From a virus (taxonomy: Duplodnaviria > Heunggongvirae > Uroviricota > Caudoviricetes), in the IMG/VR virus record IMGVR_UViG_3300031758_000002: a DNA stretch of 64,000 nucleotides, one strand, 5' to 3'. The position numbers were made by a program, and so were the translations under genes. The notes below the pieces were generated by a model. That model had not been told where the DNA came from. It did not search any database and was given only the letters and a program-made list of their open reading frames with translations. Of this stretch, positions 4,232 through 29,017 are shown one piece after another. The first letter of the stretch is position 1. Each line of letters starts with the position of its first letter.

Positions 4232-4543
4232 TCAATGACATTTTTTTCCTTCATAACTGTTTAATGTTTTTAGATTCCATTTTATTTCATATTCTTTTTT
4301 TTTATATGTTCCCATATATGTTGGGACGATAATAGTATCTTTAATATCTAAACAGAAGGTGTCTGCGGGTATTTCCAAACAAAGCCAACCATCACTACTA
4401 TGGTAGTGCCAATGATCGGGTTGTTGTACTAATGTATCAGACCATTCAACAGGATACTTTTCAAGATAATAAACATCAACATATGTTGTTCTACACCCAA
4501 TAAGAATAGAGATTAATCCAACAATAAACAATAGTTTTTTCAT
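4232..4543 (-). CDS. putative lipoprotein (103 aa)
   Basis: Signal peptide MKKLLFIVGLISILIGC with a lipobox Cys. Confidence 0.45.
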   Translation of the reverse strand: MKKLLFIVGLISILIGCRTTYVDVYYLEKYPVEWSDTLVQQPDHWHYHSSDGWLCLEIPADTFCLDIKDTIIVPTYMGTYKKKEYEIKWNLKTLNSYEGKKCH

Positions 4544-8444: not shown

Positions 8445-8879
8445 TTAAATCTCAGTGGTTGCATTGAAAATATCCAACTTATCTTGGATGTTCTCAATTC
8501 TATCCTCCATTGACTTAACCATTTCATTTCTTGTTACCAATGAAATTTCAGATGTCATCACCAATTCACTCTCCATTCGGTATCTATCTTTGTTTGATTT
8601 ACCTTCGGTACAATCCATTTTCTTAAGAGCCTGAATCATTGACTTCAATTCTGACATATAAAAAATGTCCCCCAACACCGGAGTGTTTGCCTTATGGATT
8701 TTAGATTTTAATTCAGCCAACTCTAAAGTGTCTTTACTGATTTGGTTGAATAATACTTCCGTGCTATATGGTCGTTGGTTACCTACTTCAACAGAGTTGT
8801 ACTGTTGCATTAATTTTGTATTCTCACCAATACTTTTGACGAGTTTATTTTTTGCTTTTAACGCTTGTTTAATTGTCAT
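8445..8879 (-). CDS. hypothetical protein (144 aa)
   Basis: ORF. Confidence 0.4.
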   Translation of the reverse strand: MTIKQALKAKNKLVKSIGENTKLMQQYNSVEVGNQRPYSTEVLFNQISKDTLELAELKSKIHKANTPVLGDIFYMSELKSMIQALKKMDCTEGKSNKDRYRMESELVMTSEISLVTRNEMVKSMEDRIENIQDKLDIFNATTEI

Positions 8880-8951
8880 AACTTTATTTTTTATAAGTGA
8901 AAGTTTAGGTTTTTTATTTTATTGTGTCAATAGTAAACTAAAATTTTATTT

Positions 8952-9158
8952 TTAAATAAGATGTTCATTCCCATTCAATATGTTAACAATCTTTCTTGCC
9001 AAAGTATGTTCTTCAGTATGGTAAAAAGTATCATTATTGTTTCGTAGATATCTTCTACTCCAATATTTAATAAACAAAAGATCCACTTTTTTTTCAATTA
9101 TGAATCTTTTGTTTCGTTCATCAAGAACCATCCTATATTTTCTTTTACCCAATCTCAC
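8952..9158 (-). CDS. hypothetical basic protein (68 aa)
   Basis: ORF. Confidence 0.3.
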   Translation of the reverse strand: MRLGKRKYRMVLDERNKRFIIEKKVDLLFIKYWSRRYLRNNNDTFYHTEEHTLARKIVNILNGNEHLI

Positions 9159-9199
9159 TTTGCAAATATAGTAAAAGACTTTAATTAAAACAAATTTAT

Positions 9200-10174
9200 T
9201 TATGGTAAATCGTCAAAATCTCTTAAAATTGCAGGATAATTTCTCATTGGTATAGTCATCGGTACTAACCTTGGTGCCATTCTTGGTACCAATCTTGGCT
9301 CTTCCATCATCATATCCTCAACAGGAATTGGAAGTTCATCCATAGTTTGTTCGGTTAGTTCTATAATTTCGTCTTTCCCATTGAAATAATGTTTACGACT
9401 CTTAATTTTTTCTTCAGGTGAGAACAAGTCATAATTAGTATGATTAGTTTTAACATCCAACCACTCAAAAAGTTTTTTAATCAATTCATTAGGTAAACCA
9501 GTTTCAAATGAATCAATATGATTATCAACTTCATCATATATACCAATTTTAACCTCATTATTACTATGAATACCAAACTTTCTGTTTGTCTTTTTATTTA
9601 TTACATAAATCAAAACTCCTTGTGCCGAATATCTATAGAAGTACTCACCATCGTTCTTCATTGATGTACACCACTTTGTTCCAAACCCATATGTAATCGC
9701 AGCATCGTGAGTTAATGGTTTAAAGAATAACCATTCATCGTCGTCGTGAACAATCATAATATCCTTTTTGGATTTTTTCAACATCTCTTTAGTTGCTGCC
9801 TTTCCAACTTCCCTAATTATGTCGTTGAAATCTTTATATGTTGATATGTCCGTATTTTCCACCAATCCTCTTTCAAGATATTCTGTAAATAGGGGAAGTT
9901 TATCCAAATTTTCCACATTGAAATAATTTACACACAACCAATTCAAAAGTGTCATTTTTGAATCGGGTAATTCTTTAATTATTTTTACTGTTGGTGAGTC
10001 ATTTTCATTCCCGCCCCAATACATATCATTTTTACGAATTTCAATACCATCTTTTAACATCTTAATTAATAAAGGTGTTAACTTTTTTGTTTTAGTCGGA
10101 TCCAATTTGGAAATCAAATCAATTAAATTGATATTCAAATCAGGATTCTGTTCTTTTAAATGTTTTAGTCCCAT
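9200..10174 (-). CDS. hypothetical protein carrying a conserved FKP...WCTS...YY domain (paralog of the 37045..38889 core)
   Basis: WLFFKPLTHDAAITYGFGTKWCTSMKNDGEYFYRY...LIYVIN aligns to NLYIFKPNG...AHGRPWCTSRIGGGNLYYNYR...LYYVID in the LRR protein. The C-terminus has a PRLVPRMAPRLVPM repeat. Confidence 0.45.
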   Translation of the reverse strand: MGLKHLKEQNPDLNINLIDLISKLDPTKTKKLTPLLIKMLKDGIEIRKNDMYWGGNENDSPTVKIIKELPDSKMTLLNWLCVNYFNVENLDKLPLFTEYLERGLVENTDISTYKDFNDIIREVGKAATKEMLKKSKKDIMIVHDDDEWLFFKPLTHDAAITYGFGTKWCTSMKNDGEYFYRYSAQGVLIYVINKKTNRKFGIHSNNEVKIGIYDEVDNHIDSFETGLPNELIKKLFEWLDVKTNHTNYDLFSPEEKIKSRKHYFNGKDEIIELTEQTMDELPIPVEDMMMEEPRLVPRMAPRLVPMTIPMRNYPAILRDFDDLP

Positions 10175-10178
10175 AATT

Positions 10179-10424
10179 TTATCTTAATACAATTGGATGA
10201 ATAATAAAAAATATTTCTTCTGTTCTACCATCAACCTTAACAACTCTATCGTTTTTCAACTCAAGATCTGAAGTCCCATATTCTTCTTTAAGTCGATTCA
10301 TCTGAGATTTGAGTTCTTTTTTTGCATCATTTTCAAATTTAAAATAACCCACATATGAATCACATCCGTGTCCTTTTTCATACACACCAAAAATAATTTG
10401 TCTTGTTTCTATTCTATTTTTCAT
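10179..10424 (-). CDS. hypothetical protein (81 aa)
   Basis: ORF. Confidence 0.3.
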   Translation of the reverse strand: MKNRIETRQIIFGVYEKGHGCDSYVGYFKFENDAKKELKSQMNRLKEEYGTSDLELKNDRVVKVDGRTEEIFFIIHPIVLR

Positions 10425-10833
10425 TTCTTCTTTCTCTTTTTACTATTGATAAAACCTCACTTAAATCCCAATATGTACTTTTTATTCCACCTCTATCATC
10501 AAGGAATATGTTTGCATATATCTTACCATTCATCCCATATGGTTTATCCCACTCAGGATGCATTTGATTTACCCCATGAACTTCAATACCCAACTTTTCA
10601 ACTTGTTCTTTTGCGGTTTCCAATTGTCGTTCACTTCTTGCAGTATTAATTAAAAATATAATACCTTCTTTTTGACATTCCAAAATCAAGTCAACAACTT
10701 TTTGACAATGTTCTTTTAATTCTTCATTATATGGAATTATTGTGTCATCAAGATCACAACCAATAATCAATTTACCATTTTTTAACCATTCAGTTGCAAG
10801 TCGGTTAATGAAGAAATTTGCGTGATGTCTCAT
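10414..10833 (-). CDS. HAD-like phosphatase (139 aa)
   Basis: Motif I IIGCDLDDTII, INTARS (motif II) and IFLDDRGG (motif IV). Confidence 0.55.
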   Translation of the reverse strand: MRHHANFFINRLATEWLKNGKLIIGCDLDDTIIPYNEELKEHCQKVVDLILECQKEGIIFLINTARSERQLETAKEQVEKLGIEVHGVNQMHPEWDKPYGMNGKIYANIFLDDRGGIKSTYWDLSEVLSIVKRERRNEK

Positions 10834-11140: not shown

Positions 11141-12271
11141 TCAATGGGAGTCACCAACATTATTTTTCTCCCCATATATTAAATAATCAGGATTGATAAC
11201 CTTTGCAACTTTATGACGATCACCAGTCACAGATTTAACAACGATACCTTCGTGAGGAACTTTGGTTCCTTTTATAAAATTACCGAAGACATATTTATCT
11301 TGTTCTTCTTTACTCCAAGTTCCTTCATATAATACTTCAACTTGTGGGAGTTCCAAACAATCAAAATGAACGGTTTCTTCAAGGTGTGGTTGATAAACAC
11401 CATCAACTTCAACATCAAAACCAACAAACTTTATTTCCTCCAAACCATATTCATAGTTTTTTTGGATTCCTTTACCATAGATTTCCCCATAGATAGTAAG
11501 TCCTTGTTCCAAAGATTCAGGGTAATATGTATCCTTAACATGATCCCAAAGTTTTTTTCGTATGTCATATTTGTTGGCAACTTCTCTCCACACATCAGTA
11601 TCGTAGAATCCTTGAGAATCAGATCCTTTCTCCACATTATGAGAACCATACACATATTCAAACTCAACCCACTCATTACCGAAGAACTTTTTCACTCTAT
11701 CCCACAAAGAAAGTTTTTTCTTTCTAACTATTCCAAATCTGGCATTAGTTCCGTGTATTTTACGGGTGATAACAACCTCATCTTCTTCGGTGAACATATC
11801 AGGAACATTCTTCATGTTTGGGAATTTGTGATAGATATGGAAGTTTGGATTTTGGTGGTATCTAACTTTCTTACCTCCACCCAAAGTAACCATTTTAACC
11901 GGTGGTTCGTATTTGGTTATTCCAAGTATTTCCATCATATCATCACCTTCATTAACATTGTTCACCAATGATTTTGGTGCCAAGTACTTGAATGGTATTA
12001 ACAAACATTCGGAATAAAATCCACGAAGTTTTACGGTTCTAACTCGTTGTCCTTTACGAAGGTAGTTAGTCACTTCCATCAAGTCAGACAATGCTTGTGG
12101 TATTACCGCATCAGTGGTTGCAACAACAACTTTATCTCCTTCTTGGTATTCACCTTTTTTGGTTATCGCCTGCCATCCACCAACAAGTACAAGTTCTATG
12201 TTGTCAGCATTTGGTATTTCAACTACTGAACCTATTTTTCCAACATATGCTACGCTATTTTGATTTTCCAT
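11141..12271 (-). CDS. ATP-dependent RNA ligase, Rnl2/Rnl5-like, with N-terminal extension (OB fold by analogy to Rnl5)
   Basis: Nucleotidyltransferase motif I ITRKIHGTNARFG (KxHGxN as in T4 Rnl2 EKIHGTN) at about residue 172. An N-terminal module of about 130 aa precedes it. Total 376 aa, similar to DraRnl/NgrRnl. Confidence 0.7.
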   Translation of the reverse strand: MENQNSVAYVGKIGSVVEIPNADNIELVLVGGWQAITKKGEYQEGDKVVVATTDAVIPQALSDLMEVTNYLRKGQRVRTVKLRGFYSECLLIPFKYLAPKSLVNNVNEGDDMMEILGITKYEPPVKMVTLGGGKKVRYHQNPNFHIYHKFPNMKNVPDMFTEEDEVVITRKIHGTNARFGIVRKKKLSLWDRVKKFFGNEWVEFEYVYGSHNVEKGSDSQGFYDTDVWREVANKYDIRKKLWDHVKDTYYPESLEQGLTIYGEIYGKGIQKNYEYGLEEIKFVGFDVEVDGVYQPHLEETVHFDCLELPQVEVLYEGTWSKEEQDKYVFGNFIKGTKVPHEGIVVKSVTGDRHKVAKVINPDYLIYGEKNNVGDSH

Positions 12272-12674: not shown

Positions 12675-13300
12675 TACCCCAAACTTTCAGGATAATACAA
12701 TAATGTTGGGTTTTTTTTAGCGATGTCTATATCAGGAAATCTCTCCTTGAAAGTCTTAACATCAAACTTACCAGTTATCAAATGCCACCCATTCTTTGTT
12801 GGTATAACCGCTTCAATTTTTTTACCTTCAGGTTTAAGATAATTAATAAATTGTGATAGTTCAGTAACGGCATGAAAATCGGTTACGTCAATATCCACAA
12901 TCCACCGTTTCTCTTGAGTTTTAATTTGCCCAACAACTGAATCAAATAAACCTTTTTGGTTTGATACACCGTCTCTAATCCGTTCGGCAAGTATTGCCAA
13001 CATATTTAATGACACATCTTTGTGGTTTTGTTTTTGGACATGGATATATGCACGAGCCTTAAACATTTCACAAAGTTGTTTAATCTCATCATATCTTTTT
13101 TCCAAATATGGGATGGACTCAATACAATAAGTTTTAATTGTTCTTACTGATTGGTGATTATCCCTTTCACCTTCCGGTTGATCCTTCTTTCGTTTAAATA
13201 CATATAACATATAGAAGTCACCATAATGTGAAAAATTCAATAATGGTTTTATTAAATCTATGTTATCAATCTTGTTCATTTTCATCATCATAATATTCAT
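12674..13300 (-). CDS. hypothetical protein; weak AEP (primase-polymerase)-like motif pattern
   Basis: WIVDIDVTD (hhhDhD), TKNGWHLI (sGxGxHh-like) and PDIDIA. See findings. Confidence 0.3.
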   Translation of the reverse strand: MNIMMMKMNKIDNIDLIKPLLNFSHYGDFYMLYVFKRKKDQPEGERDNHQSVRTIKTYCIESIPYLEKRYDEIKQLCEMFKARAYIHVQKQNHKDVSLNMLAILAERIRDGVSNQKGLFDSVVGQIKTQEKRWIVDIDVTDFHAVTELSQFINYLKPEGKKIEAVIPTKNGWHLITGKFDVKTFKERFPDIDIAKKNPTLLYYPESLG

Positions 13301-13802
13301 CTACTTTCATTGAAACTGGTGGGGTGAAATCCCAAACAGTGTTTTCAAACTCTGTGATCCATTCATTCAATTCTTCTCTTGTCCAAAATGGAGCAAAATG
13401 TGGACGGTAACTAAACGGAACATTGTCTTTATTTTCCCAATCTTCAAGTCGTTGTGTTACATCCTCAATTAGGTTTTTATCCTTATTGTACTTATTCCAT
13501 TGTCTATAATCATCTTCGGATTTGATATACATAACATCACCATAATTATAAAAATCCATCTCAGGGAATTTCAAATTTGGGTTGTTGGTATATACATCAA
13601 CAATACCATTGTCTCCATTGTATTCACCACAAAGTTCTTTTAAAGAATGTAAACTACTTGGTCTTTCTTCCCACACACTACCGAACTGACGAACAGAACA
13701 GATATACAAATACCCATCATCATATGAATGAATAAGTCCTTCAATTTTATTTCTTAAAGAAATAAGTTCGTCCATTGTAAGTTTAGTTAAGTCCATTTTC
13801 AT
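13266..13802 (-). CDS. hypothetical acidic protein (178 aa)
   Basis: ORF. Confidence 0.35.
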   Translation of the reverse strand: MKMDLTKLTMDELISLRNKIEGLIHSYDDGYLYICSVRQFGSVWEERPSSLHSLKELCGEYNGDNGIVDVYTNNPNLKFPEMDFYNYGDVMYIKSEDDYRQWNKYNKDKNLIEDVTQRLEDWENKDNVPFSYRPHFAPFWTREELNEWITEFENTVWDFTPPVSMKVDEYYDDENEQD

Positions 13803-13860
13803 TTTACAAAAGTAATCATTTTATATTTACCAAACAATATTTTTGGATATTTATTTTAAT

Positions 13861-14310
13861 ATGAACCTACAAGAATCCATAAGAAGAATATTAAGGGAAG
13901 AAACCATAAAAGATAAATATAAAAAAGAATATATTAATTTTCATGGTAACATGGAAGGGTTTGATGACAATTGGGATAATCTGTTTAATAAAGATTTTAA
14001 TGATGGTGGTTTGATGAATATACCTGAATATATTGAATTGAGTAGATTAGTTAATATTATTGGGGAATTTAAAAAGGATAAAAATATACATTGGATAAGA
14101 ACCTCTGATGAATATTTATTTTACGATACGGATTGGTTGTTTTTATCCGATGTTAAAATAAATGATAACGCTAAAATAATCAGAATAAAAACACACAAAT
14201 CAAATATTAATTTAGATCAAACAATAATTCAAAATTTAACTTTTAATTATGAAAAAGAGATTACCTTGAAAAACTTGGATTTAGAAAATTATGAAATAAT
14301 AAAATATTAA
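13861..14310 (+). CDS. hypothetical protein, member of the N-terminal LQE-IRRILREE propeptide family (paralog of 14313..14639)
   Basis: ATGAACCTACAAGAA start shared with the next gene. N-terminus MNLQESIRRILREE. Confidence 0.45.
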   Translation: MNLQESIRRILREETIKDKYKKEYINFHGNMEGFDDNWDNLFNKDFNDGGLMNIPEYIELSRLVNIIGEFKKDKNIHWIRTSDEYLFYDTDWLFLSDVKINDNAKIIRIKTHKSNINLDQTIIQNLTFNYEKEITLKNLDLENYEIIKY

Positions 14311-14312
14311 AT

Positions 14313-14639
14313 ATGAACCTACAAGAAAACATAAGAAGAATATTGAGGGAAGAATTATTGAATGAAACAAAGTTCTTCCGTAGAAGAATTGATTTAGATG
14401 AGGTTAAGAAGTTACTTTCAATTAATGCACAACAAGTGTATTACGAAACTGAAAGTTATAGAGGTTTTAAATATGACTTAACTTTAAGAGCGGTAGAATC
14501 AATTATGTGGAATAATTATGAACTTGGGTGGGAGGATTTACCAGAACAAGAGGAAATAGACTTTGTGACAGAAGTTTCTGATATGCTTGAGGACACGATT
14601 AAACAGTTATACAAATTTTATCATAATAAAAGATTCTAA
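14313..14639 (+). CDS. hypothetical protein, paralog with N-terminal MNLQENIRRILREE
   Basis: First 14 aa nearly identical to the upstream gene. The rest is divergent. Confidence 0.45.
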   Translation: MNLQENIRRILREELLNETKFFRRRIDLDEVKKLLSINAQQVYYETESYRGFKYDLTLRAVESIMWNNYELGWEDLPEQEEIDFVTEVSDMLEDTIKQLYKFYHNKRF

Positions 14640-14641
14640 AA

Positions 14642-15052
14642 TTACATCATTAACAAATCTGTTGTGTTCAAATCTTCACCATCAATGACAAAACAAGCAT
14701 TTTGTAGTTGGTGAACATATCTCATAGGTTTAATATCACTAAAACCCTGAATTCCATATAAACCTTTATAAAGGTGTGTTAGTGTAATACTTTCAGTTTC
14801 CCACCAATGAAATTCACCAATACCAGGTGCGGTATCTGACATTTCAACAAAATGAAGTAAGTCTAGTATTTTTTCAGTTATCTCAACGGGTTTGAAGTCA
14901 TCAATGTGTATCGGTAATCCATCTTCCGTTCCTATGTATAGTCCGTTAAATGCGATTGCTCTAACTTCTGTTGGTGTTCCAAATAGTGGGTGGGTAACAA
15001 TACTACCCACCCTTAATTCATTCAGTTTCATACAATCCGTTTTTTTGATCAT
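14642..15052 (-). CDS. hypothetical protein (136 aa)
   Basis: ORF. Confidence 0.35.
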   Translation of the reverse strand: MIKKTDCMKLNELRVGSIVTHPLFGTPTEVRAIAFNGLYIGTEDGLPIHIDDFKPVEITEKILDLLHFVEMSDTAPGIGEFHWWETESITLTHLYKGLYGIQGFSDIKPMRYVHQLQNACFVIDGEDLNTTDLLMM

Positions 15053-16202: not shown

Positions 16203-16550
16203 TTAGTATTTAATAATCCAAGTCACTCCCTTTCCAAAATTGGGTGATGCATGAGAATTAATATCTTTAGATTCTAATGATTCTATTTTATCCATTATTT
16301 TTTCACGATTACCGTCAACAGGTGACGGTAATTGAGTAATAATGTATTTAACATATTTAGTATATTTAAGTTTCTTTCCTGAAACATCACCCTTTTTAAT
16401 CTCAATCTTACACCCACTAGGTAAACCCAATTTTTTTCTCAACTGAAAAACGGTTAAGTCTAATAAATCAGATTTAGATTCATTTTCTTTAATCACACGA
16501 TTAACAATTCTTGTCAAGTCTGATTCGGTTAGTTTAATTATTTTTTTCAT
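16203..16550 (-). CDS. small basic protein, tandem paralog 3 of the MKK(V/I)I(R/K)LTESDLTRIV family
   Basis: N-terminus MKKIIKLTESDLTRIVNRVIKEN. Confidence 0.5.
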   Translation of the reverse strand: MKKIIKLTESDLTRIVNRVIKENESKSDLLDLTVFQLRKKLGLPSGCKIEIKKGDVSGKKLKYTKYVKYIITQLPSPVDGNREKIMDKIESLESKDINSHASPNFGKGVTWIIKY

Positions 16551-16554
16551 ATCA

Positions 16555-16887
16555 TTATTTTATATAAAACCAAAATGAGTTTTTACTTGCGTTACCAAGT
16601 TTAAATAAGTTACTTTCAAATTTATTATTTAGTTTCTCAATGATTTCTTCAGCAATCTCTTCGGTGTCATCCCCCGATTGTTTAAAACTAACCATAAATC
16701 TGTCATATGGTTTATCTGACGATTCTTTATAACCACCTTTCCATTCATCCTCACCAATGTAATCATCCATAAGTTTTTTTAACACATCCTCAATTTTTTC
16801 ATTTGATGGTTTTTTCTTATTTTCATTGATCACTCGTTTAACAATCCTTGTTAAATCTGATTCGGTTAATCTTATTACTTTTTTCAT
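16555..16887 (-). CDS. small protein, tandem paralog 2 of the MKKVIRLTESDLTRIV family
   Basis: N-terminus MKKVIRLTESDLTRIVKRVINEN. Confidence 0.5.
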   Translation of the reverse strand: MKKVIRLTESDLTRIVKRVINENKKKPSNEKIEDVLKKLMDDYIGEDEWKGGYKESSDKPYDRFMVSFKQSGDDTEEIAEEIIEKLNNKFESNLFKLGNASKNSFWFYIK

Positions 16888-16891
16888 AACA

Positions 16892-17188
16892 TTAAATATC
16901 TAAATTTTTAACTTTAATTCCTTTTGTATTTCTTTTTAAACCTGATGGTGTTGTATCGTCAGTTCTAAAACTACAAACAACATCAAACATAGCTTTTTTA
17001 AAATGGTGGAATGTTCCTTTTTTTCCATGGTATTCACCCTTTATTTCCAATTCACCATAAACATCTTCCAATTCTTCTTTTGACATCTTTAATATTTCAG
17101 ATTTACTTTGTTTCTTTTTGGATTCGGTAATAACCCTTTGGATTATTCTTGTCAAGTCTGATTCGGTTAGTCTTATTACTTTTTTCAT
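16892..17188 (-). CDS. small basic protein, tandem paralog 1 of the MKKVIRLTESDLTRI family
   Basis: N-terminus MKKVIRLTESDLTRIIQRVITES. Confidence 0.5.
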   Translation of the reverse strand: MKKVIRLTESDLTRIIQRVITESKKKQSKSEILKMSKEELEDVYGELEIKGEYHGKKGTFHHFKKAMFDVVCSFRTDDTTPSGLKRNTKGIKVKNLDI

Positions 17189-17260: not shown

Positions 17261-17629
17261 TTATTTCTTAATCGGAACTGTGTCAACTGGTTCAAGTGTC
17301 ACTTTGGTGATTCCTTTTCTAATGAAGTTAAGTTCCTTTGCGGTTCCGTAACTCAAATCAATCACAAAACTTGATGATTTTGGTAACCTGTCGTTGATCT
17401 TAACATATCTAACAGAATCATTACTTGTGTTTGTTACTTTCACAATTGTTCCGAACTTAAAGTACTTATGAGCCGCAGTTAAACTGTCTTTGTGGAATAG
17501 TTCTCCTGATGATGTCTTTCTACCTGTCCAATGTTGTCCGTAATAAGATGCGGTTCCTGTGTAGATTTTTTCTGATGATTTAAATGATAATAGTGTAATT
17601 AGTGGAATAAATAATAATAGTTTTTTCAT
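17261..17629 (-). CDS. RlpA-like double-psi beta-barrel (DPBB) domain protein with signal peptide
   Basis: Signal peptide, then GTASYYG...GRKTSSGELF...AAH..FKFGT.VKVTN..N..SV.VKINDR, matching the RlpA / rare lipoprotein A consensus. Confidence 0.65.
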   Translation of the reverse strand: MKKLLLFIPLITLLSFKSSEKIYTGTASYYGQHWTGRKTSSGELFHKDSLTAAHKYFKFGTIVKVTNTSNDSVRYVKINDRLPKSSSFVIDLSYGTAKELNFIRKGITKVTLEPVDTVPIKK

Positions 17630-17674: not shown

Positions 17675-18925
17675 TTACCGTTTAAATTTAAACTCTTTTT
17701 CTATTTTTCTTTTTCCGTATTTTTTCTCCATTATTTGTTGGTGTAACTCCCAATTAAGAATTGATTCGTTGGTTTGTTCTTTTTCGTCAGGAATAAGTGA
17801 ATATATTTTTACAAGTCGTTTAATTAATTTTGTTGCAACATAGTTAAATCTTTCACATTCATCAACAAAGAACTGACTTTCTCTATTACGATATTTGGCA
17901 AGTTGATTTAAATATTTATGTCTAACTTTTTCCAATCCTTCATCGTTCTCACGCTTAACACCCATACCTAACATTCTCATAAAATTAGCCATTTCACTAT
18001 CAACACTATCCGTCATTTTATCAAAAATATCTCTTTTAGCACTAATAAGATTAATATAAACTATATCCATAACTACCTTTATTTTTTCCTCTTCAGTCAT
18101 ATTTTCATAATCCACATCTGCGTGTTCTAATAAACCATCCACACGATCCATTTGATTATGTAATTCTTCCATAAAATGTTCAAAACTAAAATCTCTAATT
18201 TCTTTTAGTTCTTTAACAACACTATCATTTTCAAAAAATTCTCTAAACTTTTCTCTTGTTACTCCAGTTAATTTCATTCTTGTTGCCATTTCAGTTGGTC
18301 TAACAAGATTTTCAACATATTGAATGAAATAACTATATCTCATAAATTCACTAATAACCGGAATTCCGAAGTTTAACCCTTGACTTGCATATGCTTGATA
18401 ATCAGCATCTTTCCCTATCAAGTCAGTTGTCTTTTTTTGTTTATCAAACTTATGTTTAATTTCGTGAGCAATTACAGATATTAATTGAACTCTATCATTA
18501 GTAAAGTAATTATAAGGGTCTTGGGAATCCCAATCATCCCCATTTGATGCAAAATGTAATTGTAACTCAATTGTGTTATCCTGTTTATGAACCTTCATTA
18601 GTAGTTTTCTATCAAAATTAAATTGATTTGCAACACCGGCTGATATCATAGTGAATGGTCCATCATATTCATCCATTTCGTGAACTTGAACTGCTAACTC
18701 TAATTCGTGTATTTTATAATCAGATATTGTTAAATCTAAATTATCTTCAGTAAATGTTTGTGTTGTGTCGTAATCATCCATACCTTTTAATAGGTTTAAT
18801 ATGATTTCATATAGTTCTTCAGCCGATTCAATGATTCCTTCAGGAACTCCAACGGCTTCATTCAGTAAGAGATTATTTACAATAATCTCAAGTTGATTTT
18901 CAGTAATGATTAAATTTTTCTTCAT
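17675..18925 (-). CDS. HExxH zinc-metallopeptidase-like protein carrying the family N-terminal motif (MKKNLIITENQLEIIVNNLL)
   Basis: VIAHEIKHKF HExxH motif. The N-terminus is homologous to the MKKVIRLTESDL family. 416 aa. Confidence 0.45.
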   Translation of the reverse strand: MKKNLIITENQLEIIVNNLLLNEAVGVPEGIIESAEELYEIILNLLKGMDDYDTTQTFTEDNLDLTISDYKIHELELAVQVHEMDEYDGPFTMISAGVANQFNFDRKLLMKVHKQDNTIELQLHFASNGDDWDSQDPYNYFTNDRVQLISVIAHEIKHKFDKQKKTTDLIGKDADYQAYASQGLNFGIPVISEFMRYSYFIQYVENLVRPTEMATRMKLTGVTREKFREFFENDSVVKELKEIRDFSFEHFMEELHNQMDRVDGLLEHADVDYENMTEEEKIKVVMDIVYINLISAKRDIFDKMTDSVDSEMANFMRMLGMGVKRENDEGLEKVRHKYLNQLAKYRNRESQFFVDECERFNYVATKLIKRLVKIYSLIPDEKEQTNESILNWELHQQIMEKKYGKRKIEKEFKFKR

Positions 18926-18951: not shown

Positions 18952-19605
18952 TTAACCCACAACTCCAACCAAACCATCCAAATGATGATCACCACTCATG
19001 TCAGAACCAACAGGTATTTTACCCATAATTCTAATGATATCATCAATATTATATGGATCCATACCGTTACCATCAACACCAACATCCATTCTTTTACCAT
19101 TACCAAATTTACGGTGTTCAGGTAAGTGAACATGACCGTGTAAATGAATAACACCTTTATTCAATCCGTTCCAACTTTGTAATGGGTAATGACAAAGTAC
19201 AAAGTCTTTCCCATTGATGTTCACCTCCAAATAGTGTTGTACACTCAGGAATCTCCCTTGTACATAATCACGGTTGTTCTCAATATGATGATCATGATTT
19301 CCAAGTACGAGGTGAATGTTGTGACAAACCAATCTTTCAAGGAAGATTCCAATATTATCAAATCCTCCGAATGAAACATCACCCAACATAATTAAGGTAT
19401 CATCTTGTCCAACAACACTATTAATACCGTCAACCAATCGTTGGTTCATTTGTTCAATAGTTTGAAAATCACGAGTAGAATCTACCGGTACTTCACCATC
19501 TTGTGTTCTCCAATTTGTCACACCACGACATATATTTTTGTGTCCATAGTGAGTATCACTTGTGATGAACACTTTTCCTGTCGTTAATATTTTTTTAAAT
19601 CCCAT
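18952..19605 (-). CDS. calcineurin-like metallophosphoesterase
   Basis: MPP motifs ITSDTHYGH, LGDVSFGG and LGNHDHH, plus the later His motifs. Confidence 0.7.
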   Translation of the reverse strand: MGFKKILTTGKVFITSDTHYGHKNICRGVTNWRTQDGEVPVDSTRDFQTIEQMNQRLVDGINSVVGQDDTLIMLGDVSFGGFDNIGIFLERLVCHNIHLVLGNHDHHIENNRDYVQGRFLSVQHYLEVNINGKDFVLCHYPLQSWNGLNKGVIHLHGHVHLPEHRKFGNGKRMDVGVDGNGMDPYNIDDIIRIMGKIPVGSDMSGDHHLDGLVGVVG

Positions 19606-19633
19606 AATTGCAAATATATTGATATTTATTGAA

Positions 19634-20224
19634 ATGAAAAAGTTTTTATTATCCTTATTTTTTATTTTCCCTTTTATTTTATTATCTCAAAAACCATTAA
19701 GAGATAGTGTAATCATTAAAAGTGATATTTTTACCGTTGTTTATTCTGAGAAATTAGAACAACCTTTATCTGTGAGTTATACCGTGGATTGTCCGTCAGG
19801 TAATGCATCAAGATCTGGTATGGATTTCTTCACTTGTGATTCTGTTAAAACATCTGACTCAAAAGATTATGAAAATAACATTTGGGACAAGGGACATATG
19901 GCACCTGCCGCAGATTTTAATTGTGATAAGATTATGTTAAAGAAAACATTTAGTTACCTTAACTGTACATTACAACAACAAGATCTCAATAGAACCACTT
20001 GGCGTTTATTAGAAGCGTATGAAAGAGAATTGGCATTAAAGTATGAGGTGTCTGTTATTGTAATTTGTGTATTTTCAAAAAAATCCACAATACTCAAATC
20101 AGGCGCCACGGTTCCTGATGGATATTATAAGAAAATAACTTATAATGGTAAAACAGAAACTTATTACTTTAAAAATGAAAAACCTTCAACAACCGATTTT
20201 AAAAAGTTTTTGGTTAAAGGTTAA
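19634..20224 (+). CDS. secreted DNA/RNA non-specific endonuclease (Serratia NucA / EndoG family)
   Basis: Signal peptide MKKFLLSLFFIFPFILLSQ. Catalytic-region motif NIWDKGHMAPAADF (DRGH-type). Start set at the internal Met after antisense overlap with the neighbouring gene. Confidence 0.65.
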   Translation: MKKFLLSLFFIFPFILLSQKPLRDSVIIKSDIFTVVYSEKLEQPLSVSYTVDCPSGNASRSGMDFFTCDSVKTSDSKDYENNIWDKGHMAPAADFNCDKIMLKKTFSYLNCTLQQQDLNRTTWRLLEAYERELALKYEVSVIVICVFSKKSTILKSGATVPDGYYKKITYNGKTETYYFKNEKPSTTDFKKFLVKG

Positions 20225-20603
20225 TTTCAAAACGATTACGCATATTTTCTAAAACTTGTTCGGGAACATTATGTTCATTTACACCTCCGTGTCTATTCTC
20301 AACTACAATAGTGAATACTTTATACCCATGTTCTTTCGCCATATCAATGTATGGTTGCATCTCCCACTCTTGTGTGAATGTATTTGAAACCACAATCTTG
20401 GGATATTCCAATATCATATCAGATTTAACAAAACTCTGACACCATTGATGCGCATCTTTTATTTTAGTGAAATCAAAATTATACACACCATTCTCATCAA
20501 TGAAGAACATATCCGCTTCATAGTGTTGTCCACCTAAAGTTTTTGCAAATGTTGATTTACCACTACCTGGTATTCCTCTTACGATATATAATGTATTTTC
20601 CAT
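20214..20603 (-). CDS. P-loop kinase (AAA_33 / polynucleotide-kinase-like)
   Basis: Walker A VRGIPGSGKSTFAK at the N-terminus, like the T4 Pnk kinase domain. 129 aa. Confidence 0.6.
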   Translation of the reverse strand: MENTLYIVRGIPGSGKSTFAKTLGGQHYEADMFFIDENGVYNFDFTKIKDAHQWCQSFVKSDMILEYPKIVVSNTFTQEWEMQPYIDMAKEHGYKVFTIVVENRHGGVNEHNVPEQVLENMRNRFEINL

Positions 20604-20637: not shown

Positions 20638-20660
20638 AGGAACCTAAGTTCCTTTTATTT
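20638..20660 (-). terminator. rho-independent terminator (GGAAC-loop-GTTCC)
   Basis: AAAAAAAGGAACCTAAGTTCCTTTTATTTT, downstream of the gene ending at 20660. Confidence 0.55.
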
Positions 20661-21520
20661 TATTGTGGTCTGTTTTGTAGATTTGATACAAACTTAGCCG
20701 CCTCTAAACCTTTATCAATCATTTGTTGTTTTGATGGTACCAATTCTAAATTCTTTTCAGTTTCAATAGTACCAATTGGTTTAAGTTCCAACTTTGATAT
20801 TGGTTCCAATCCTTTACATTCAATATTTAATTTATCAATAGCCTTTTGGAATTTAGGTGTCGTCAATTCACACCATGTTTTTTTATCAGTTTGTTTAGTT
20901 GTGTACCATTTTCCATCATCAGTTTTTGCATACATCCAAGTTTTATCATTCGGAATATAACAAACTTGCTGATTTGTGAATTCTTTCTCAACAAATTTAC
21001 ATCTATTATCTGTTTTTGGTTTTTGTTCTTCACCACCACCTCCAACTACTTTATCAGATTTTAATTTATTTCCATCACAGAATAATTTATTCATTGCAGT
21101 TTTAAATGGTTGTCCAGTCATTACAATTTGTTCGTAAGTTTGTTCACTACCTTCAAATCTTAATAAATAATCACCACAAATAAATTTCCCTTTAGACCCT
21201 GATTTAACCAAAGGACCTGTAAATTTACCTGTTGAGTCTTCTTTTTTATAGTAAACATCTACGGATAGACTTTTACCGTCGGTATTTTTTTTCACTGTCT
21301 CACCTTTTTTAATGTAAACTCTAGGTGCACTACCCCCATACTGAATTGCGTGTACTGTAAACTCTTGAAGATTCTTAATTGTATATGTTCCATCATCATT
21401 CAATGTTTGTTCAGAGATAACATCTTTTTTTACACCATATTGCGATAATATGTCTTTTTTTTCTTGTTCGGAAATTAAAATTCTTCTGATATTCATAACT
21501 TTTTTATTTATAAATATCAT
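20660..21520 (-). CDS. hypothetical protein. N-terminus contains the NIRRILISEQ variant of the family motif; probable start at Met9 (21496)
   Basis: MNIRRILISEQEKK resembles MNLQENIRRILREE. Confidence 0.4.
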   Translation of the reverse strand: MIFINKKVMNIRRILISEQEKKDILSQYGVKKDVISEQTLNDDGTYTIKNLQEFTVHAIQYGGSAPRVYIKKGETVKKNTDGKSLSVDVYYKKEDSTGKFTGPLVKSGSKGKFICGDYLLRFEGSEQTYEQIVMTGQPFKTAMNKLFCDGNKLKSDKVVGGGGEEQKPKTDNRCKFVEKEFTNQQVCYIPNDKTWMYAKTDDGKWYTTKQTDKKTWCELTTPKFQKAIDKLNIECKGLEPISKLELKPIGTIETEKNLELVPSKQQMIDKGLEAAKFVSNLQNRPQ

Positions 21521-21614: not shown

Positions 21615-22064
21615 TTATATTCTATGCATCCACAGGTAATAATCCGTTTGATTCCCTGAACCCATTGTAATGTCGGTGAATTTAAGTCCGAGAATTACTC
21701 CACTAGTTAAATTACCTTCAAATATTGGTCCAGTTAAATTACCCCAAGGTGTGTAGTTCATTGTTAGTGAATACGCAGATGCGGTTGTATAAAACGAGTA
21801 GGTTGCGGTATTACCATTAAAAGTATACGAATTAATTGTGTTAAAGACAAGTGTATCACTAATCGTAATAATTGCACCAATACCATTAACTCGGTAACCA
21901 TCAATAACCCATGTCTCACCAATTAGGTTTGTTGCGGTATCAATCACCGTTGTATCCGTCACAATAGGTTGTGGTGGAATTGGTGGTGGGTAAGGTGGTG
22001 GGTTAGTCTTTTGACAAGAAACAATCACCAACATAATGGTGATAAAATAAATTAACTTTTTCAT
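21615..22064 (-). CDS. putative lipoprotein with Pro-rich linker (149 aa)
   Basis: MKKLIYFITIMLVIVSC lipobox, then PPPYPPPIPPQP. Confidence 0.45.
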   Translation of the reverse strand: MKKLIYFITIMLVIVSCQKTNPPPYPPPIPPQPIVTDTTVIDTATNLIGETWVIDGYRVNGIGAIITISDTLVFNTINSYTFNGNTATYSFYTTASAYSLTMNYTPWGNLTGPIFEGNLTSGVILGLKFTDITMGSGNQTDYYLWMHRI

Positions 22065-22870: not shown

Positions 22871-23299
22871 TTACAAAAGTGTTAAAATTAATCTAAATAA
22901 TGGGTCTTTATGGTCATCAATTGGTAAATCCATGAAATTAAAGTACCCACATTCGCTATGTTCGTGTCCATCTTTAGCCATATCCAAATCAGGATATATC
23001 TCTACATCTGATTGGTAATAGTAGATATACATCATCCCTTTAACTTCACCATTTTTAGTATATGTATTAAAAGTACCAACTAATCTTATGTCATTAATCT
23101 CATTAGTTAAATCAATATTAGTTTCCTCATAAAACTCCCTAATTGCAGTTTCTTTAGGTTTTTCACCATACTCAACACCACCACCAGGAACCGACCATAT
23201 ATTAGGTGAAGACTGATCAGGACTTCTTTTACAAAGTAAAAATTTATTACCACACTTGACAAGTATTCCCGAAAATCTTTTTAGTTTTCTATTAGCCAT
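22871..23299 (-). CDS. Nudix hydrolase
   Basis: Nudix box GGGVEYGEKPKETAIREFYEETN. Start placed at the internal MANRKLKRF Met; the longer ORF extends to 23374 through hydrophobic low-complexity sequence. Confidence 0.7.
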   Translation of the reverse strand: MANRKLKRFSGILVKCGNKFLLCKRSPDQSSPNIWSVPGGGVEYGEKPKETAIREFYEETNIDLTNEINDIRLVGTFNTYTKNGEVKGMMYIYYYQSDVEIYPDLDMAKDGHEHSECGYFNFMDLPIDDHKDPLFRLILTLL

Positions 23300-23357
23300 T
23301 ATATTTATGTATATGGATATAATAATAAATAACAATTTGTTCAATGTCAAATGTGTA

Positions 23358-23657
23358 ATGACATCAAAAGACACTCAACAAGGTATGATGGGTAAAAAAT
23401 TTGATGATACATTTGATGGAATGTTATTTATAATGAATGATAGTGAACATTCTTTTTGGATGAAGGATTGTATAATTCCTTTGGATATTATCTATATAAG
23501 TAACAATACTATTGTTAAGATACATCATAACTGTGAACCTTGTACTTCTAACCCATGTAAGAGATATCCTGGTAATGGTGATATGATATTAGAAGTTATG
23601 GGCGGAACCTGTGAAGAATATGATATTACAAAAGGAGATAGAGTATACTTTGATTAA
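23358..23657 (+). CDS. DUF192 (COG1430) domain protein
   Basis: GMLFIMNDSEHSFWMKDCIIPLDIIYISNN.IV.I...EPC......YPGNGDMILE matches the DUF192 consensus. Divergent from the Nudix gene. Confidence 0.55.
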   Translation: MTSKDTQQGMMGKKFDDTFDGMLFIMNDSEHSFWMKDCIIPLDIIYISNNTIVKIHHNCEPCTSNPCKRYPGNGDMILEVMGGTCEEYDITKGDRVYFD

Positions 23658-25066
23658 CCTTCTTGAACTTTCTCTTTCAATAATCTAACAAATTCATTCT
23701 GAATCATTTTAGTAAATTTCACATACGCAGCGTCCTCATTTTCAGAACTATATTTGTATTTCCCTTGAGGTGGTCTTTTACTTCTACCCATATAATTTAA
23801 TCCCGAAATGTTAGTTATACATTTATGTCCTCCACTATTTGATTGGATAATGTCCCAAGCAGTTACGGTAACACTATCAAGTAAACTCATCTCTTCATCA
23901 GTTAAATCGGTAAATGATTTTGACATTGCCGTATCAATATCTCTCATAAAATCTTTACCGTCTTTTGATTTGAATTTATCTCCGTATAACGCTCTAAAAT
24001 CTTTATATGTGAACCCAACAGATTCAGGTGTAAATCCTTTTCCTGATTCTGATATCCACTTAATTGTTGATAATGGAATATCCCTATCTTTTAATTGTGA
24101 TTCCCATTTTCCTAATACTTCATCTTTAATCTCACCTAAGTTAACTCCTTTAAGTGCTCTTTCTTTTTTGAATGGGTTACAGGATGCTTGAACCAATCCT
24201 AACGGCCAAGCAATAACTAAGAAGTCGGCATCAGGATTATTTCTAAATGGGGTGTATCTATCATAAGAACCTGGTTTCATCATTGATCCACCACCATATT
24301 GTACAATAATGTTGTCATCAATTTTAACATTAGGATGTGACTTCATCGTTTGGACATACATTTCCTTATTCTTTTCAAGATCTCCAACCTCAGCGTATCC
24401 TTTACTCATCATTTGTCCTCTAATATTATTCAGGATACTCATTAATGATGGATTTGCGGTTAAAACAATTTCTTCAAGAAAACCTGGTTTATTTTTATAT
24501 GCTAATAATAGTTTATTAACAACCAACCCCATTAACATTTTATTTCTTTGTAATGTTTTATCCTTATCTAATTTGAATAGGTAGTTCATCACTTGTTCAG
24601 GTGCGATATCGTGTTTTGCATAATCTGCAGAATCCACAGTTGATATTAATGTAATGTCTTCAGGTGAGAAAATATCTTTAGGTGATATTGTTTGAGATAT
24701 TGTTTCAACATTCGATCTTGATGATCTAAAACTTGTTGATGTTCCTTGTTCAACTCCGGCTTGAGTATCGTGGTGATCGGTATGAATAACAAACATTGGT
24801 TTTCCGTGGGCAAAATCTACCAGTACAGGCATTGTATCACCTTCAGCATCTAATTTCTTAACTGAAAATTCTTTATCCCCGTATTGGATTATTTCGGCAT
24901 CAACAACTTTAATACCATTATTCTCCAAATAGTGTTTCATTGCAAGTGCGGTAGTAACACCATCTAAATCTTGGTGAAAATATATTTTAGCTTTAGGGTA
25001 TCTTTTAGCTAATTTGTTAATATCCCTTAATCCTGATTCTAATATTAAATTTTTTCTCATAACCAT
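23654..25066 (-). CDS. DHH/DHHA1-family phosphoesterase (RecJ/NrnA-like)
   Basis: DHH motifs FHQDLDGV and VIHTDHHD. DHHA1-like GGGH motif in SNSGGHKCI near the C-terminus. 470 aa. Confidence 0.65.
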   Translation of the reverse strand: MVMRKNLILESGLRDINKLAKRYPKAKIYFHQDLDGVTTALAMKHYLENNGIKVVDAEIIQYGDKEFSVKKLDAEGDTMPVLVDFAHGKPMFVIHTDHHDTQAGVEQGTSTSFRSSRSNVETISQTISPKDIFSPEDITLISTVDSADYAKHDIAPEQVMNYLFKLDKDKTLQRNKMLMGLVVNKLLLAYKNKPGFLEEIVLTANPSLMSILNNIRGQMMSKGYAEVGDLEKNKEMYVQTMKSHPNVKIDDNIIVQYGGGSMMKPGSYDRYTPFRNNPDADFLVIAWPLGLVQASCNPFKKERALKGVNLGEIKDEVLGKWESQLKDRDIPLSTIKWISESGKGFTPESVGFTYKDFRALYGDKFKSKDGKDFMRDIDTAMSKSFTDLTDEEMSLLDSVTVTAWDIIQSNSGGHKCITNISGLNYMGRSKRPPQGKYKYSSENEDAAYVKFTKMIQNEFVRLLKEKVQEG

Positions 25067-26073: not shown

Positions 26074-26949
26074 TTACCCATAAACAACTTCACCCATTAC
26101 ACATAGTTGTAAGAATACATCGGCATCTCCAGCATCCGCATTTTCCAATAATATATTTTTCCAAACTTCAGGATATTCACTTTTTATTTTTGTTATTGCC
26201 TCTAATATTCTGTTCATATCAATATGTCCAAGTTTAGTATTTTCAATGTCTTCCTGATAACTCTTTTCATCAACCATATCATCACTATCACCAATATTGT
26301 AATCACCATCTTTTAATGCTCTCCTAACATCATAATATTCTTCCTTATCGTAGAAATCAATTGACCCACCTCGTAAGACATATTCACCAACCGCTTCAGA
26401 TTTTGATTGCCCATATGATTTTATATTTTCAGGTAAATCAATTAAATACCAATAATTGGATCCACCCTCAAGAGCGGTAACTAAAATATCAGTTATGTCT
26501 TCTTTTGTTAACTTTCTATTTAATTGTTCTTTCTCCCATTTTTCGCTTCTGATATTCCAAGACATTGAATATGCTCCTCCGTGTATATCTCTATCAATAC
26601 CATCTTTAACATACTCTTCAAAATCAAAATTTTCAAGGTTCTTTTTATTTCTTTCGTATTGTTTTACTTTACCCTCATATTCTTTAATCATATAATCAAA
26701 ATATTTTTCAGGTATATCAGGATTATTTTTAATATGACTTTTTATTTTTTCCAAAATTTCCGCATGTTCCTCACCCTCCTCAACTTCTTTTTTTAACCAT
26801 TCATATTGTTGTTTAACATTTTTTCTAACAAATTCTTCAATTCGTTTCATTTCGTCCTGTGTAAACCCATATTGATTTACCTCATCTGACTCTGAAATAA
26901 GATTTGACTTTAAATATTTTAATTGTTTTTCGGTAAGAAATATTTTCAT
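26074..26949 (-). CDS. hypothetical acidic protein with family-like N-terminus MKIFLTEKQLKYLKSNL
   Basis: N-terminal LTE motif and amphipathic helix similar to the MKKVIRLTESDL family. 291 aa. Confidence 0.4.
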   Translation of the reverse strand: MKIFLTEKQLKYLKSNLISESDEVNQYGFTQDEMKRIEEFVRKNVKQQYEWLKKEVEEGEEHAEILEKIKSHIKNNPDIPEKYFDYMIKEYEGKVKQYERNKKNLENFDFEEYVKDGIDRDIHGGAYSMSWNIRSEKWEKEQLNRKLTKEDITDILVTALEGGSNYWYLIDLPENIKSYGQSKSEAVGEYVLRGGSIDFYDKEEYYDVRRALKDGDYNIGDSDDMVDEKSYQEDIENTKLGHIDMNRILEAITKIKSEYPEVWKNILLENADAGDADVFLQLCVMGEVVYG

Positions 26950-26969: not shown

Positions 26970-27296
26970 TTAGTGTCCGTAATCAATAGGTAAATATCCA
27001 CTCAAATTATAGGTTTCTTCCAACCATATTTTTAGAATATCTTGTATTTGTTCATATTCCATATCAAAAATGGATTCAAAAAATATCCAAATTCTTGTGT
27101 AATCAATAAAAACAAACTTATTTTTATCATCTTGATAATAGTAAAATAACGGTTTTTTATCCTTATTAACATAAAATGTTCTATCATAGTTAACAACCTT
27201 AGTTAGATTACCGAATTTATTATTCAACCAATTTAACGCCAGTCTGTCCCTTTTATTTTCCGTTATAATTATTTTCATATATGAATAAATATCCAT
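26970..27296 (-). CDS. hypothetical protein. Internal Met gives MKIIITENKR, family-like; probable start 27278
   Basis: ITEN motif as in MKKNLIITENQL. Confidence 0.35.
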   Translation of the reverse strand: MDIYSYMKIIITENKRDRLALNWLNNKFGNLTKVVNYDRTFYVNKDKKPLFYYYQDDKNKFVFIDYTRIWIFFESIFDMEYEQIQDILKIWLEETYNLSGYLPIDYGH

Positions 27297-28181: not shown

Positions 28182-29017
28182 TTTTTCTCCAATGTTTCAA
28201 TGTGGTGTTGCAAATACCACAATGCTTTTTTAAGATCCTGTAATTCTTTATCTAACTCTTTCTTACCCGCTCTTGAGATATACTTCACAGTATTACCAAG
28301 GGAGAATCCTAAGTCCCAAGCATCAATCACCTTGATTGCTTCATATGGGTTTGACTCTCCCCCATAGTGGTTAGGGTGATTTACTTGTTCCTTTTTTTCT
28401 TCCATTTCTTTTTTCTTTTTGTGAGCCCAAAATACTCCATCAATATGATAGGTATTAAATCCTTGCCAGTCAAATGATTCAATTACATTATTAACACCTT
28501 CAGTAGGATCTTTTGAGGACTTATAATCATCCAAATATACAATACCATCATCATTAATAAAATTAATCACATTATTAATATCACCTCTAACGCATTCCTC
28601 AAAGTGGCACCCATCAATCTCAATAAAATCAAATTTTGTTTTTGATGTGTCTAAAACTCTTGGAACAACCTCAAGGGAGTTACCAGGAAATAAACTCAAA
28701 TGTATGTTCCACTTCCTGTAATGCTTGGCAAGTATTGAGTGATTGTTAACAGTACTCTCATATTTACAGTCATCAAATACAAAAACAATTATTGGTTTCC
28801 TATTAAAATCAGGATCTTCATTAATTATTTTCAATAATGTCTCACATATTAAAACCATTGAATGTCCTTCATTGAATCCTATTTCAATAATATTTCTTGG
28901 TTTAATTTGGTATACCAAATCTTGTAGGGTATGAATCCTTTCTGGGTACCAACTAATGTTACCCTCACCCTTACCAAACATCATTCCGGGTAATTTGTTA
29001 AATATATTATTTTCCAT
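28178..29017 (-). CDS. class I SAM-dependent methyltransferase-like domain fused to a C-terminal DUF3310 domain
   Basis: Motif I-like IIEIGFNEGHS and acidic FDFIEIDG / VYLDDY. The C-terminus (HPNHYGG...YEAIKVIDAWDLGFSLGNTVKYISRAGKK...DLKKALWYLQHHI) matches DUF3310 as I remember the family. Confidence 0.5.
   Translation of the reverse strand: MENNIFNKLPGMMFGKGEGNISWYPERIHTLQDLVYQIKPRNIIEIGFNEGHSMVLICETLLKIINEDPDFNRKPIIVFVFDDCKYESTVNNHSILAKHYRKWNIHLSLFPGNSLEVVPRVLDTSKTKFDFIEIDGCHFEECVRGDINNVINFINDDGIVYLDDYKSSKDPTEGVNNVIESFDWQGFNTYHIDGVFWAHKKKKEMEEKKEQVNHPNHYGGESNPYEAIKVIDAWDLGFSLGNTVKYISRAGKKELDKELQDLKKALWYLQHHIETLEKK

Follow-up and report, generated by a model that had tools for sequence, protein, structure and literature searches.

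The window analyzed here is the 64,000-nucleotide stretch of the IMG/VR record IMGVR_UViG_3300031758_000002, which belongs to a virus of the class Caudoviricetes. It is AT-rich (~30% G+C), and its open reading frames (ORFs) are densely packed and located mainly on the minus strand. The encoded proteins are phage-like and include RNA ligase, SbcC-like, glutamine synthetase-like, NUDIX, DNA methyltransferase, primase, and RlpA-like lipoprotein representatives. This work concerns the minus-strand gene at positions 17675 to 18925 (ATG start), which encodes a 416-residue protein, counted in its presumed precursor form, with an HExxH motif and an N-terminal leader that recurs on many other viral proteins. 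An earlier sequence-only reading of the window had described the same protein as metallopeptidase-like, with an N terminus matching a family leader, and as a candidate injected effector analogous to T4 Alt. Its description of the ORF proved exact, with the motif, HEIKH, occupying residues 154 to 158 (18452 to 18466).

The HExxH protein and its family

The protein starts with a 23-residue leader, MKKNLIITENQLEIIVNNLLLNE (18857 to 18925, minus strand, as are all parts of this gene), which is a diverged version of a modular leader and a candidate capsid-targeting propeptide, as judged from the translation, the structural models, and the N termini of the family. In the AlphaFold2 (AF2) model of the full-length protein, which has a predicted local distance difference test (pLDDT) score of 80.8, residues 1 to 21 are detached from the fold and score <50. 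The model of the domain alone (residues 24 to 270, built from 131 sequences) reaches a pLDDT of 95.5 and a predicted template modeling score of 0.91; it is confident at once from A24, with a pLDDT of 91 in the first block. The boundary between these two parts, E23↓A-V-G-V-P (18842 to 18859; here and below, the arrow marks the end of the leader), is a putative prohead protease site; the folded domain, whose start is invariant, comes directly after it.

Both AF2 models show the same order of elements: a helix (residues 31 to 47), a beta-rich subdomain of eight strands (residues 55 to 128; 18542 to 18763), a helix (135 to 143), the HExxH helix (145 to 164), and three more helices. HEIKH thus lies within a long, confidently predicted helix, with H154 and H158 as putative metal ligands and E155 as the putative general base. 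The last of the three helices (203 to 220) begins with the ENLVRPTE block (18290 to 18313) and its invariant E205, 47 residues downstream of the motif, and the invariant Y176 and Y199 are located between the two. Farther on come a region of long helices (residues 278 to 377; 17795 to 18094 in the AF2 model), which includes a DECERFNY motif conserved within the close clade only, and a Lys/Arg-rich tail (residues 380 to 416, …NESILNWELHQQIMEKKYGKRKIEKEFKFKR; 17678 to 17788), delineated from alignment A1 and the AF2 model, with a pLDDT of <55.

A profile search against 1.84 billion cluster representatives (E value of ≤0.001) retrieved 627 representatives at 50% identity. Public metagenomes contain 1031 homologues, none of them with a Pfam domain, and the contigs that encode them reach ~312 kb. 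A 100% identical protein (P0001) is present on 14 metagenome contigs, with sizes up to 312 kb. Two contigs of member phages, Ga0114364_1000008 and Ga0114347_1000868, come from freshwater bloom samples. In single-protein searches, the query has no match in Pfam, PHROGs, NCBIfam, or the PDB sequences. Searches of 50,697 GenBank phage records produced no match either in tblastn with the protein or the family consensus or in megablast with the surrounding 10 kb; nor did any relative turn up among the 185,579 GTDB genomes scanned, and an IMG/VR locus search with one family member (P0133) found no locus. The family is therefore known from uncultured viral contigs alone, with no cultured relative.

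Conservation was assessed in 135 near-full-length representatives (clusters at 50% identity), most of them 24 to 33% identical to the query. H154, E155, H158, Y176, Y199, E205, F227, and G26 are invariant in this set, and E23 (98 to 99%), V27 (98%), P28 (99%), R209 (95%), and E212 (97%) are nearly so; the invariance of H154, E155, and H158 also holds in the deep alignment A2. The HExxH string, taken alone, is no more than chance, as it occurs once in the ~20,100 residues of the window ORFs, where 0.42 occurrences are expected from composition (0.03 in this protein); it is the invariance that gives it meaning. Its invariance across such a diverse family marks a conserved functional site. The same expectation of 0.42 is what could be cited for a chance motif in a nonenzymatic protein, an explanation that is effectively refuted by the joint invariance of HExxH, E205, Y176, and Y199 in 135 representatives at ~25% identity. 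As the motif sits in a helix and is invariant, it also does not fall in a nonconserved loop, one of the two findings that the sequence-only reading had named as refuting its proposal.

Profile and structure comparisons gave matches to zincins, all of them below the usual levels of significance. The recurrent Pfam near-hits of family members are all zincin families, Peptidase_M76 (Atp23) in 10 of 118 members and Peptidase_M91 (NleD-type effectors) in 7 of 118, and these are the only families matched repeatedly; every score, however, is below the curated cutoff. A structure search with the domain model shows no significant match, to a solved zincin fold or to any other; the zincin fold that the sequence-only reading had proposed to confirm by structure prediction was thus not established. 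The best match that has an enzyme active site is nonetheless a zincin. A match to the C-terminal metallopeptidase effector domain of VgrG2b from Pseudomonas aeruginosa (PDB 6h56) scores under the usual significance level; that domain is delivered by type VI secretion, whereas the phage protein would travel in a phage head. The search with the full-length model matched only generic helical bundles, probably owing to the long-helix region near the C terminus. By the Pfam, PHROG, NCBIfam, and PDB profile comparisons, the protein is not a member of any curated peptidase family. Membership in a known zincin fold class is accordingly not established, and the fold may be new.

Within these limits, the most likely enzymatic assignment, judging from conservation and the models, is a gluzincin-like zinc peptidase. 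As in the gluzincins of clan MA, a helix and then a beta region precede the helix with the HExxH motif, a helix farther on starts with an invariant Glu 47 residues downstream, and further Tyr and Arg residues are invariant as well. This order of a helix, a beta region, the HExxH helix, and a Glu helix, together with the Tyr and Arg, appears to resemble the catalytic residue sets of gluzincins such as clostridial neurotoxins and anthrax lethal factor. Unlike gluzincins, the protein lacks a significant fold match or a match of the Pfam or MEROPS type, and it has an eight-strand beta region and a long C-terminal helical extension. From its position and conservation, E205 could plausibly serve as the third metal ligand, in the manner of a "glutamate helix," which supplies a candidate for the residue that the sequence-only reading had left to be located. 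The "metallopeptidase-like" label is thus supported by the invariant helical motif and by the downstream Glu as a candidate ligand, but not by fold or family similarity, which in Pfam extends over only ~25 residues. We regard a metal-dependent hydrolase as fairly probable from the sequence and model evidence; whether it would be a peptidase specifically appears evenly balanced.

The modular leader and its links to T4-type head assembly

The N terminus of the protein, MKKNLIITENQLEIIVNNLLLNE↓AVGVP, matches the canonical leader of the window, MKKVIRLTESDLTRIVKRVINE, with ~10 identities of 22 and one extra residue. The claim of a leader match therefore holds, with the qualification that this copy is diverged. 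The match is real rather than fortuitous because other members of the HExxH family bear the canonical leader proper, e.g., P0148 (MKKVIRLTESDIQKIVKRIITE↓KLGVP) and P0162 (MKKTIKLTESDLKRIVGRILSE). Still others have a short, 11-residue leader (MRELIKKILKE↓ELGVP) or nearly none, and leader lengths in the family show modes at 11 and 22 residues. The family consensus at the junction is L/I (90%)-x-E (98%)↓A/R/K-L/V-G-V-P, which in our protein reads L-N-E23↓A.

In the window, the canonical leader is found on the ORFs at 16203 to 16550, 16555 to 16887, 16892 to 17188, and 31321 to 32829. The first three form a minus-strand tandem of small proteins (115, 110, and 98 residues; 16203 to 17188) downstream of the HExxH gene, without an assigned Pfam or PHROG family. 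Their leaders, MKK[VI]I[RK]LTESDLTRI[VI].RVI.E, are near-identical, and the remainders have diverged completely. The fourth (minus strand) encodes a 502-residue protein with no Pfam, PHROG, or NCBIfam match. Two adjacent plus-strand ORFs (13861 to 14310 and 14313 to 14639) start with a short leader, MNLQE[SN]IRRILREE. In the DNA alignment of the tandem ORFs, the changes among the leader copies are synonymous and leave the peptide intact, which indicates that selection acts on the peptide; for the same reason, we rejected a repeat or a regulatory element at the DNA level as the explanation of the leader.

A scan of IMG/VR in which only the first 12 codons were constrained (loci L007 to L124) detected the leader on at least 110 distinct proteins of 71 to 452 residues, encoded in at least 118 viral stretches on contigs of 4 to 412 kb. 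Residues 13 to 22, which the scan left unconstrained, are still conserved as xR[IL]V[KR]RVIxE: of 110 canonical leaders, 109 have I, V, or L at position 20 and 97 have E at position 22. After E22, similarity among the leader-bearing proteins ends wholly, and only 3 of 113 contain a Pfam domain (PG_binding_1). Searches for the leader itself produced no match in Pfam or PHROGs, no tblastn match in the 50,697 GenBank phage records with the bare leader and one leader protein, and nothing relevant when leader strings were sought in the literature. Within orthologous families, short and long forms of the leader are interchangeable. The leader system seems to merit attention independently of the HExxH protein.

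Further leader variants are seen in the window, at the starts of ORFs 26074 to 26949, 26970 to 27296, 44108 to 45457, and 23654 to 25066 (all minus strand) and 40051 to 40536 (plus strand). These leader-like N termini include MKIFLTEKQLKYL, MKIIITENKRD, MNLLPLLKSIIVE↓S, and …FRKVLTE↓T, and a DHH family protein of the window starts with MRKNLILE↓S. Some of these variants may be due to chance in an AT-rich proteome. A second N-terminal motif, …ISEQEKKDILSQYG or …ISEEERKDIRKQYN, is present on a 286-residue minus-strand ORF (20660 to 21520) and, in one member of the HExxH family (P0235), stands where the usual leader would be, which suggests that there are several interchangeable leader types. In two IMG/VR contigs of ~38 to 40 kb (L211 and L212) that encode a 30%-identical relative of the HExxH protein, about one-fourth of the genes are small ORFs starting with MKYIITE[SE]Q…, so that a related N-terminal motif is greatly expanded there.

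In phage T4, N-terminal capsid-targeting propeptides of 10 to 20 residues are present on the internal proteins, Alt, and gp24 and are removed by the prohead protease gp21; apart from these propeptides, the injected proteins that bear them are very diverse (PMC3012670, PMC5694885, PMC9958956). T4 gp21 itself starts with MNEPQLLIE, the nine residues that are autocleaved, and gp24 with MAKINELLRE↓S, both ending in hydrophobic-x-Glu. When T4 proteins were compared to all fetched loci, gp21-type proteases were detected in seven leader-bearing loci (E values of 1e-20 to 1e-13), along with homologues of the portal, large terminase, gp23-type capsid, and sheath proteins. In the gp21 homologues, the catalytic blocks of T4, ELNHP and SSRG, are preserved, and there is an N-terminal GILIE. 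A search with these proteases as the query led to IMGVR_UViG_3300042540_001399 (290,887 bp), whose head module consists of terminase, portal, gp21-like protease, a protein in the scaffold position, and the major capsid protein (phrog_138), and which also encodes an HExxH homologue with 47% identity. The closest cultured relatives of the capsid protein are from T4-like phages of Microcystis and Flavobacterium (~43% identity).

The leader is also found on proteins encoded in the head module. Three orthologous families there carry it in interchangeable long and short forms, always with [ILV]-x-E directly before a conserved mature start: the product of the gene after the capsid gene (…IIKKVIKE↓ATSDSxGSRGSY), that of the gene before the terminase gene (…LIRKIVKE↓AP[VI]DYG), and a third family (MKKVIRLSEADITKLVKRVLEE↓SH…RYMFFSNL or MDKLDRIIKKVIRE↓SH…RYMFFSNL). 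A modular tag, a terminal motif that matches the one cleaved in T4, the matching type of protease in the same lineage, and the presence of the tag on head module-encoded proteins together substantially strengthen the T4 analogy proposed in the sequence-only reading. We also considered whether the gene after the capsid gene could encode a gp24 homologue and rejected this assignment, as T4 gp24 matches capsid proteins only. In L234, a locus with a gp21-like protease at 10001 to 10717, other head module proteins (8518 to 9240 and 12891 to 14780) have hydrophobic-x-Glu starts as well, MKFGVLKSKIEKCLIE↓SY and, on the capsid protein, MGALLE↓SG…, as would be expected if T4-type processing were widespread in this lineage.

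The resemblance to the T4 propeptides extends to several features. The leader is of similar length (11 or 22 residues here), is attached to unrelated, fast-evolving, mostly small proteins, ends in hydrophobic-x-Glu directly before the conserved mature domain, and coexists in the lineage with a gp21 family protease and a T4-type major capsid protein, portal, and terminase. It resembles the gp24 propeptide in pattern rather than through evident sequence homology. Three leader ORFs stand in tandem beside the HExxH gene, and their layout recalls the tandem internal-protein genes of T4. In contrast to the T4 propeptides, the 22-residue form is longer, far more conserved (near-identical over hundreds of contigs), and present on many more genes per genome, and the system, seen in none of the GenBank phages searched, is known from sequence alone. 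The likeness to Alt is one of concept only, that of an enzyme with a propeptide that would be packaged and injected: Alt is an ADP-ribosyltransferase, whereas the protein described here has an HExxH metal site, and the lack of homology is deduced from the absence of tblastn matches of our protein to GenBank phages, T4 included. A zincin-like metal site and T4-type targeted cargo are known kinds of things; compared with that of T4, the leader system shows much greater uniformity and a far wider distribution.

A proposed packaged metallohydrolase and competing explanations

The best explanation of these data, which we put forward tentatively and with somewhat less than even confidence, is that the product of the gene is the precursor form of an enzyme belonging to a new HExxH…E metallohydrolase family of uncultured T4-like giant phages, an enzyme that would be targeted by the leader, packaged, and ejected. 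In the proposed mechanism, the metal ligands would be H154 and H158, from the motif helix, and E205, from the helix at 203 to 220; E155 would act as the general base, and Y176, Y199, and R209 would assist catalysis. The first 23 residues would serve as a propeptide of the capsid-targeting type, docking the precursor in the core of the assembling prohead, where a gp21-type protease would cut after L-N-E23 to leave A-V-G-V-P as the mature N terminus. The enzyme would then ride in the head and be ejected with the DNA, and its early target would be a host protein or the envelope. Our confidence in the whole is limited because we infer both halves, the enzyme (metal binding, peptidase chemistry, and target) and the delivery (cleavage, packaging, and ejection). 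For packaging through the leader, which draws on sequence patterns and the T4 analogy, the chances seem about even. A more ambitious proposal, in which the protein founds a class of HExxH metalloenzymes with a new structure and is one item of a very large injected arsenal tagged with 22- or 11-residue propeptides, appears to us possible but rather doubtful.

Several observations weigh against this explanation. On the enzymatic side, the M76 near-hits align over just 22 to 26 residues, at the ISSxxHELxHxYD helix; searches of PDB sequences with profiles of the 118 members and of the 99-residue core came up empty; and the eight-strand beta region, which weakly resembles an MRH domain, is atypical for zincins. 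On the delivery side, the gp21-type protease was seen on a related contig, the head module lying outside the 64-kb window, and only ~12 of the 118 leader loci are near head genes, which is about chance and shows no clear enrichment. Leader-like N termini are very frequent, on ~8 of 35 genes in L211 and on more in the window, which would be many for packaged cargo. The conserved neighbors of the HExxH gene are a kinase and a phosphoesterase rather than head genes. Finally, the [IL]-x-E-x-x-GVP motif is kept even in members that are nearly leaderless (MILE↓SVGVP and MKINE↓RLGVP), so that E23 may be conserved for structural reasons and not as a cleavage site.

The last two observations would fit an intracellular enzyme that is never packaged and works with the neighboring P-loop kinase and metallophosphoesterase in what may be a region for RNA repair or nucleotide processing, either as a metallohydrolase acting on a nucleotide or nucleic acid-linked substrate or as a protease directed against a host nuclease; its N-terminal helix would then be a docking or oligomerization element instead of a capsid signal. 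The gene for the calcineurin-like metallophosphoesterase (Pfam Metallophos, phrog_547; 18952 to 19605, minus strand) is directly upstream, 26 nucleotides away on the same strand, and the AAA_33 P-loop kinase (Pfam AAA_33; 20214 to 20603, minus strand) belongs to the same gene string. The kinase is found in 78 of 80 related IMG/VR loci, as is the complete string of AAA_33, a variable insert, Metallophos, and HExxH genes, and despite the variable inserts between kinase and phosphoesterase genes, 67 of these 78 have Metallophos as the gene directly preceding the HExxH gene. An RNA ligase and a NUDIX hydrolase are encoded nearby, and the region has no recognizable structural genes. Yet all 80 loci represent a single lineage (HExxH proteins with 42 to 79% identity), so this synteny may reflect descent only, and in the distant loci L211 and L212, no phosphoesterase ORF adjoins the HExxH gene in the ORF lists. 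The leader is on the HExxH protein but on neither the Metallophos nor the AAA_33 neighbor, and an intracellular role leaves both its modularity and its [L/I]-x-E end unexplained. Moreover, the packaged proteins of T4, i.e., the internal proteins and Alt, are not known to be encoded within the portal-to-capsid head block either. We consider this intracellular alternative somewhat unlikely.

A different objection concerns the chemistry. The HExxH…E site could be part of a new nonpeptidase fold, in another type of hydrolase or in a structural or regulatory metal binder, with a likeness to zincins that is convergent and limited to the motif. The confinement of the Pfam near-hits to the motif helix and the weakly MRH-like beta region would agree with this, but the order of elements and the invariant Tyr and Arg appear to resemble the gluzincin sets, zincin families are the only recurrent near-hits, and the best structural match with an enzyme active site is a zincin; on balance, such a fold seems unlikely. 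It is improbable, to a much greater degree, that the protein is packaged but acts inside the prohead or head, e.g., in trimming scaffold, core peptides, or other cargo, and is no host effector. The leader and protease evidence is the same for this possibility as for an ejected enzyme, and T4-type heads need extensive clearance of core peptides, but in T4, gp21 already serves this function, and the HExxH gene is outside the head module. Furthermore, the HExxH protein evolves faster than its Metallophos neighbor (42 to 79% versus 67 to 89% identity in the 80 related loci), which is a better fit for a host-facing protein.

If the leader does target proteins to the capsid as a propeptide, its presence identifies hundreds of unannotated and rapidly evolving proteins as packaged and, probably, injected, and these would be the proteins most likely to counter host defenses during the first seconds after infection begins. 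Among them, the HExxH protein would be the first candidate for a catalytic cargo, from a metalloenzyme family without a solved relative. The leader combined with [L/I]-x-E would provide a simple sequence rule for mining phage effectors, so that sequence data alone would suffice to list what thousands of uncultured phages inject. Should the leader have another meaning, what is left is still a large, virus-only enzyme family with an invariant site.

Other genes in and around the window

The minus-strand kinase and phosphoesterase genes share their region with genes for a DRB0094-type RNA ligase (11141 to 12271) and a NUDIX hydrolase (22871 to 23374), both also on the minus strand. Together, these four may represent a split RNA-repair set, comparable to the T4 polynucleotide kinase and RNA ligase. 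Between the kinase and the phosphoesterase genes lies a plus-strand gene for a DNA/RNA nonspecific endonuclease with a signal peptide-like N terminus (19562 to 20224). This gene is present in just 6 of the 80 related loci and thus looks like a mobile insertion.

On the other side, the HExxH gene is separated from the three tandem leader ORFs by a gene for a DPBB domain protein (17261 to 17629). This is one of several minus-strand ORFs of the secreted or lipoprotein type (17261 to 17629, 21615 to 22064, and 4232 to 4543), among which there are an RlpA-like DPBB domain and lipobox-like N termini. The leader-bearing genes have no obvious Shine-Dalgarno sequence upstream, which may hint at a host from the Bacteroidota.

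A search for head genes within the 64-kb window found none, and the first structural match (phrog_1645) is ~5 to 6 kb past its right end. The region just past that end (L129, 11169 to 21113) contains a run of large ORFs without Pfam matches (812, 528, 483, 406, and >815 residues). The one of 406 residues is the match to phrog_1645, which is a virion structural protein, and homologues occur in T4-like cyanophages. A structural module seems to start there.

Elsewhere in the window, a minus-strand glutamine synthetase-like gene (Gln-synt_N and Gln-synt_C; 29007 to 30206) is conserved in relatives (L125) and is a possible auxiliary metabolic gene. A sigma-70 family factor and an SbcC/SbcD-like pair, comparable to gp46 and gp47 of T4, are encoded at 50600 to 51400, 53624 to 55999, and 57381 to 58160, all on the minus strand.

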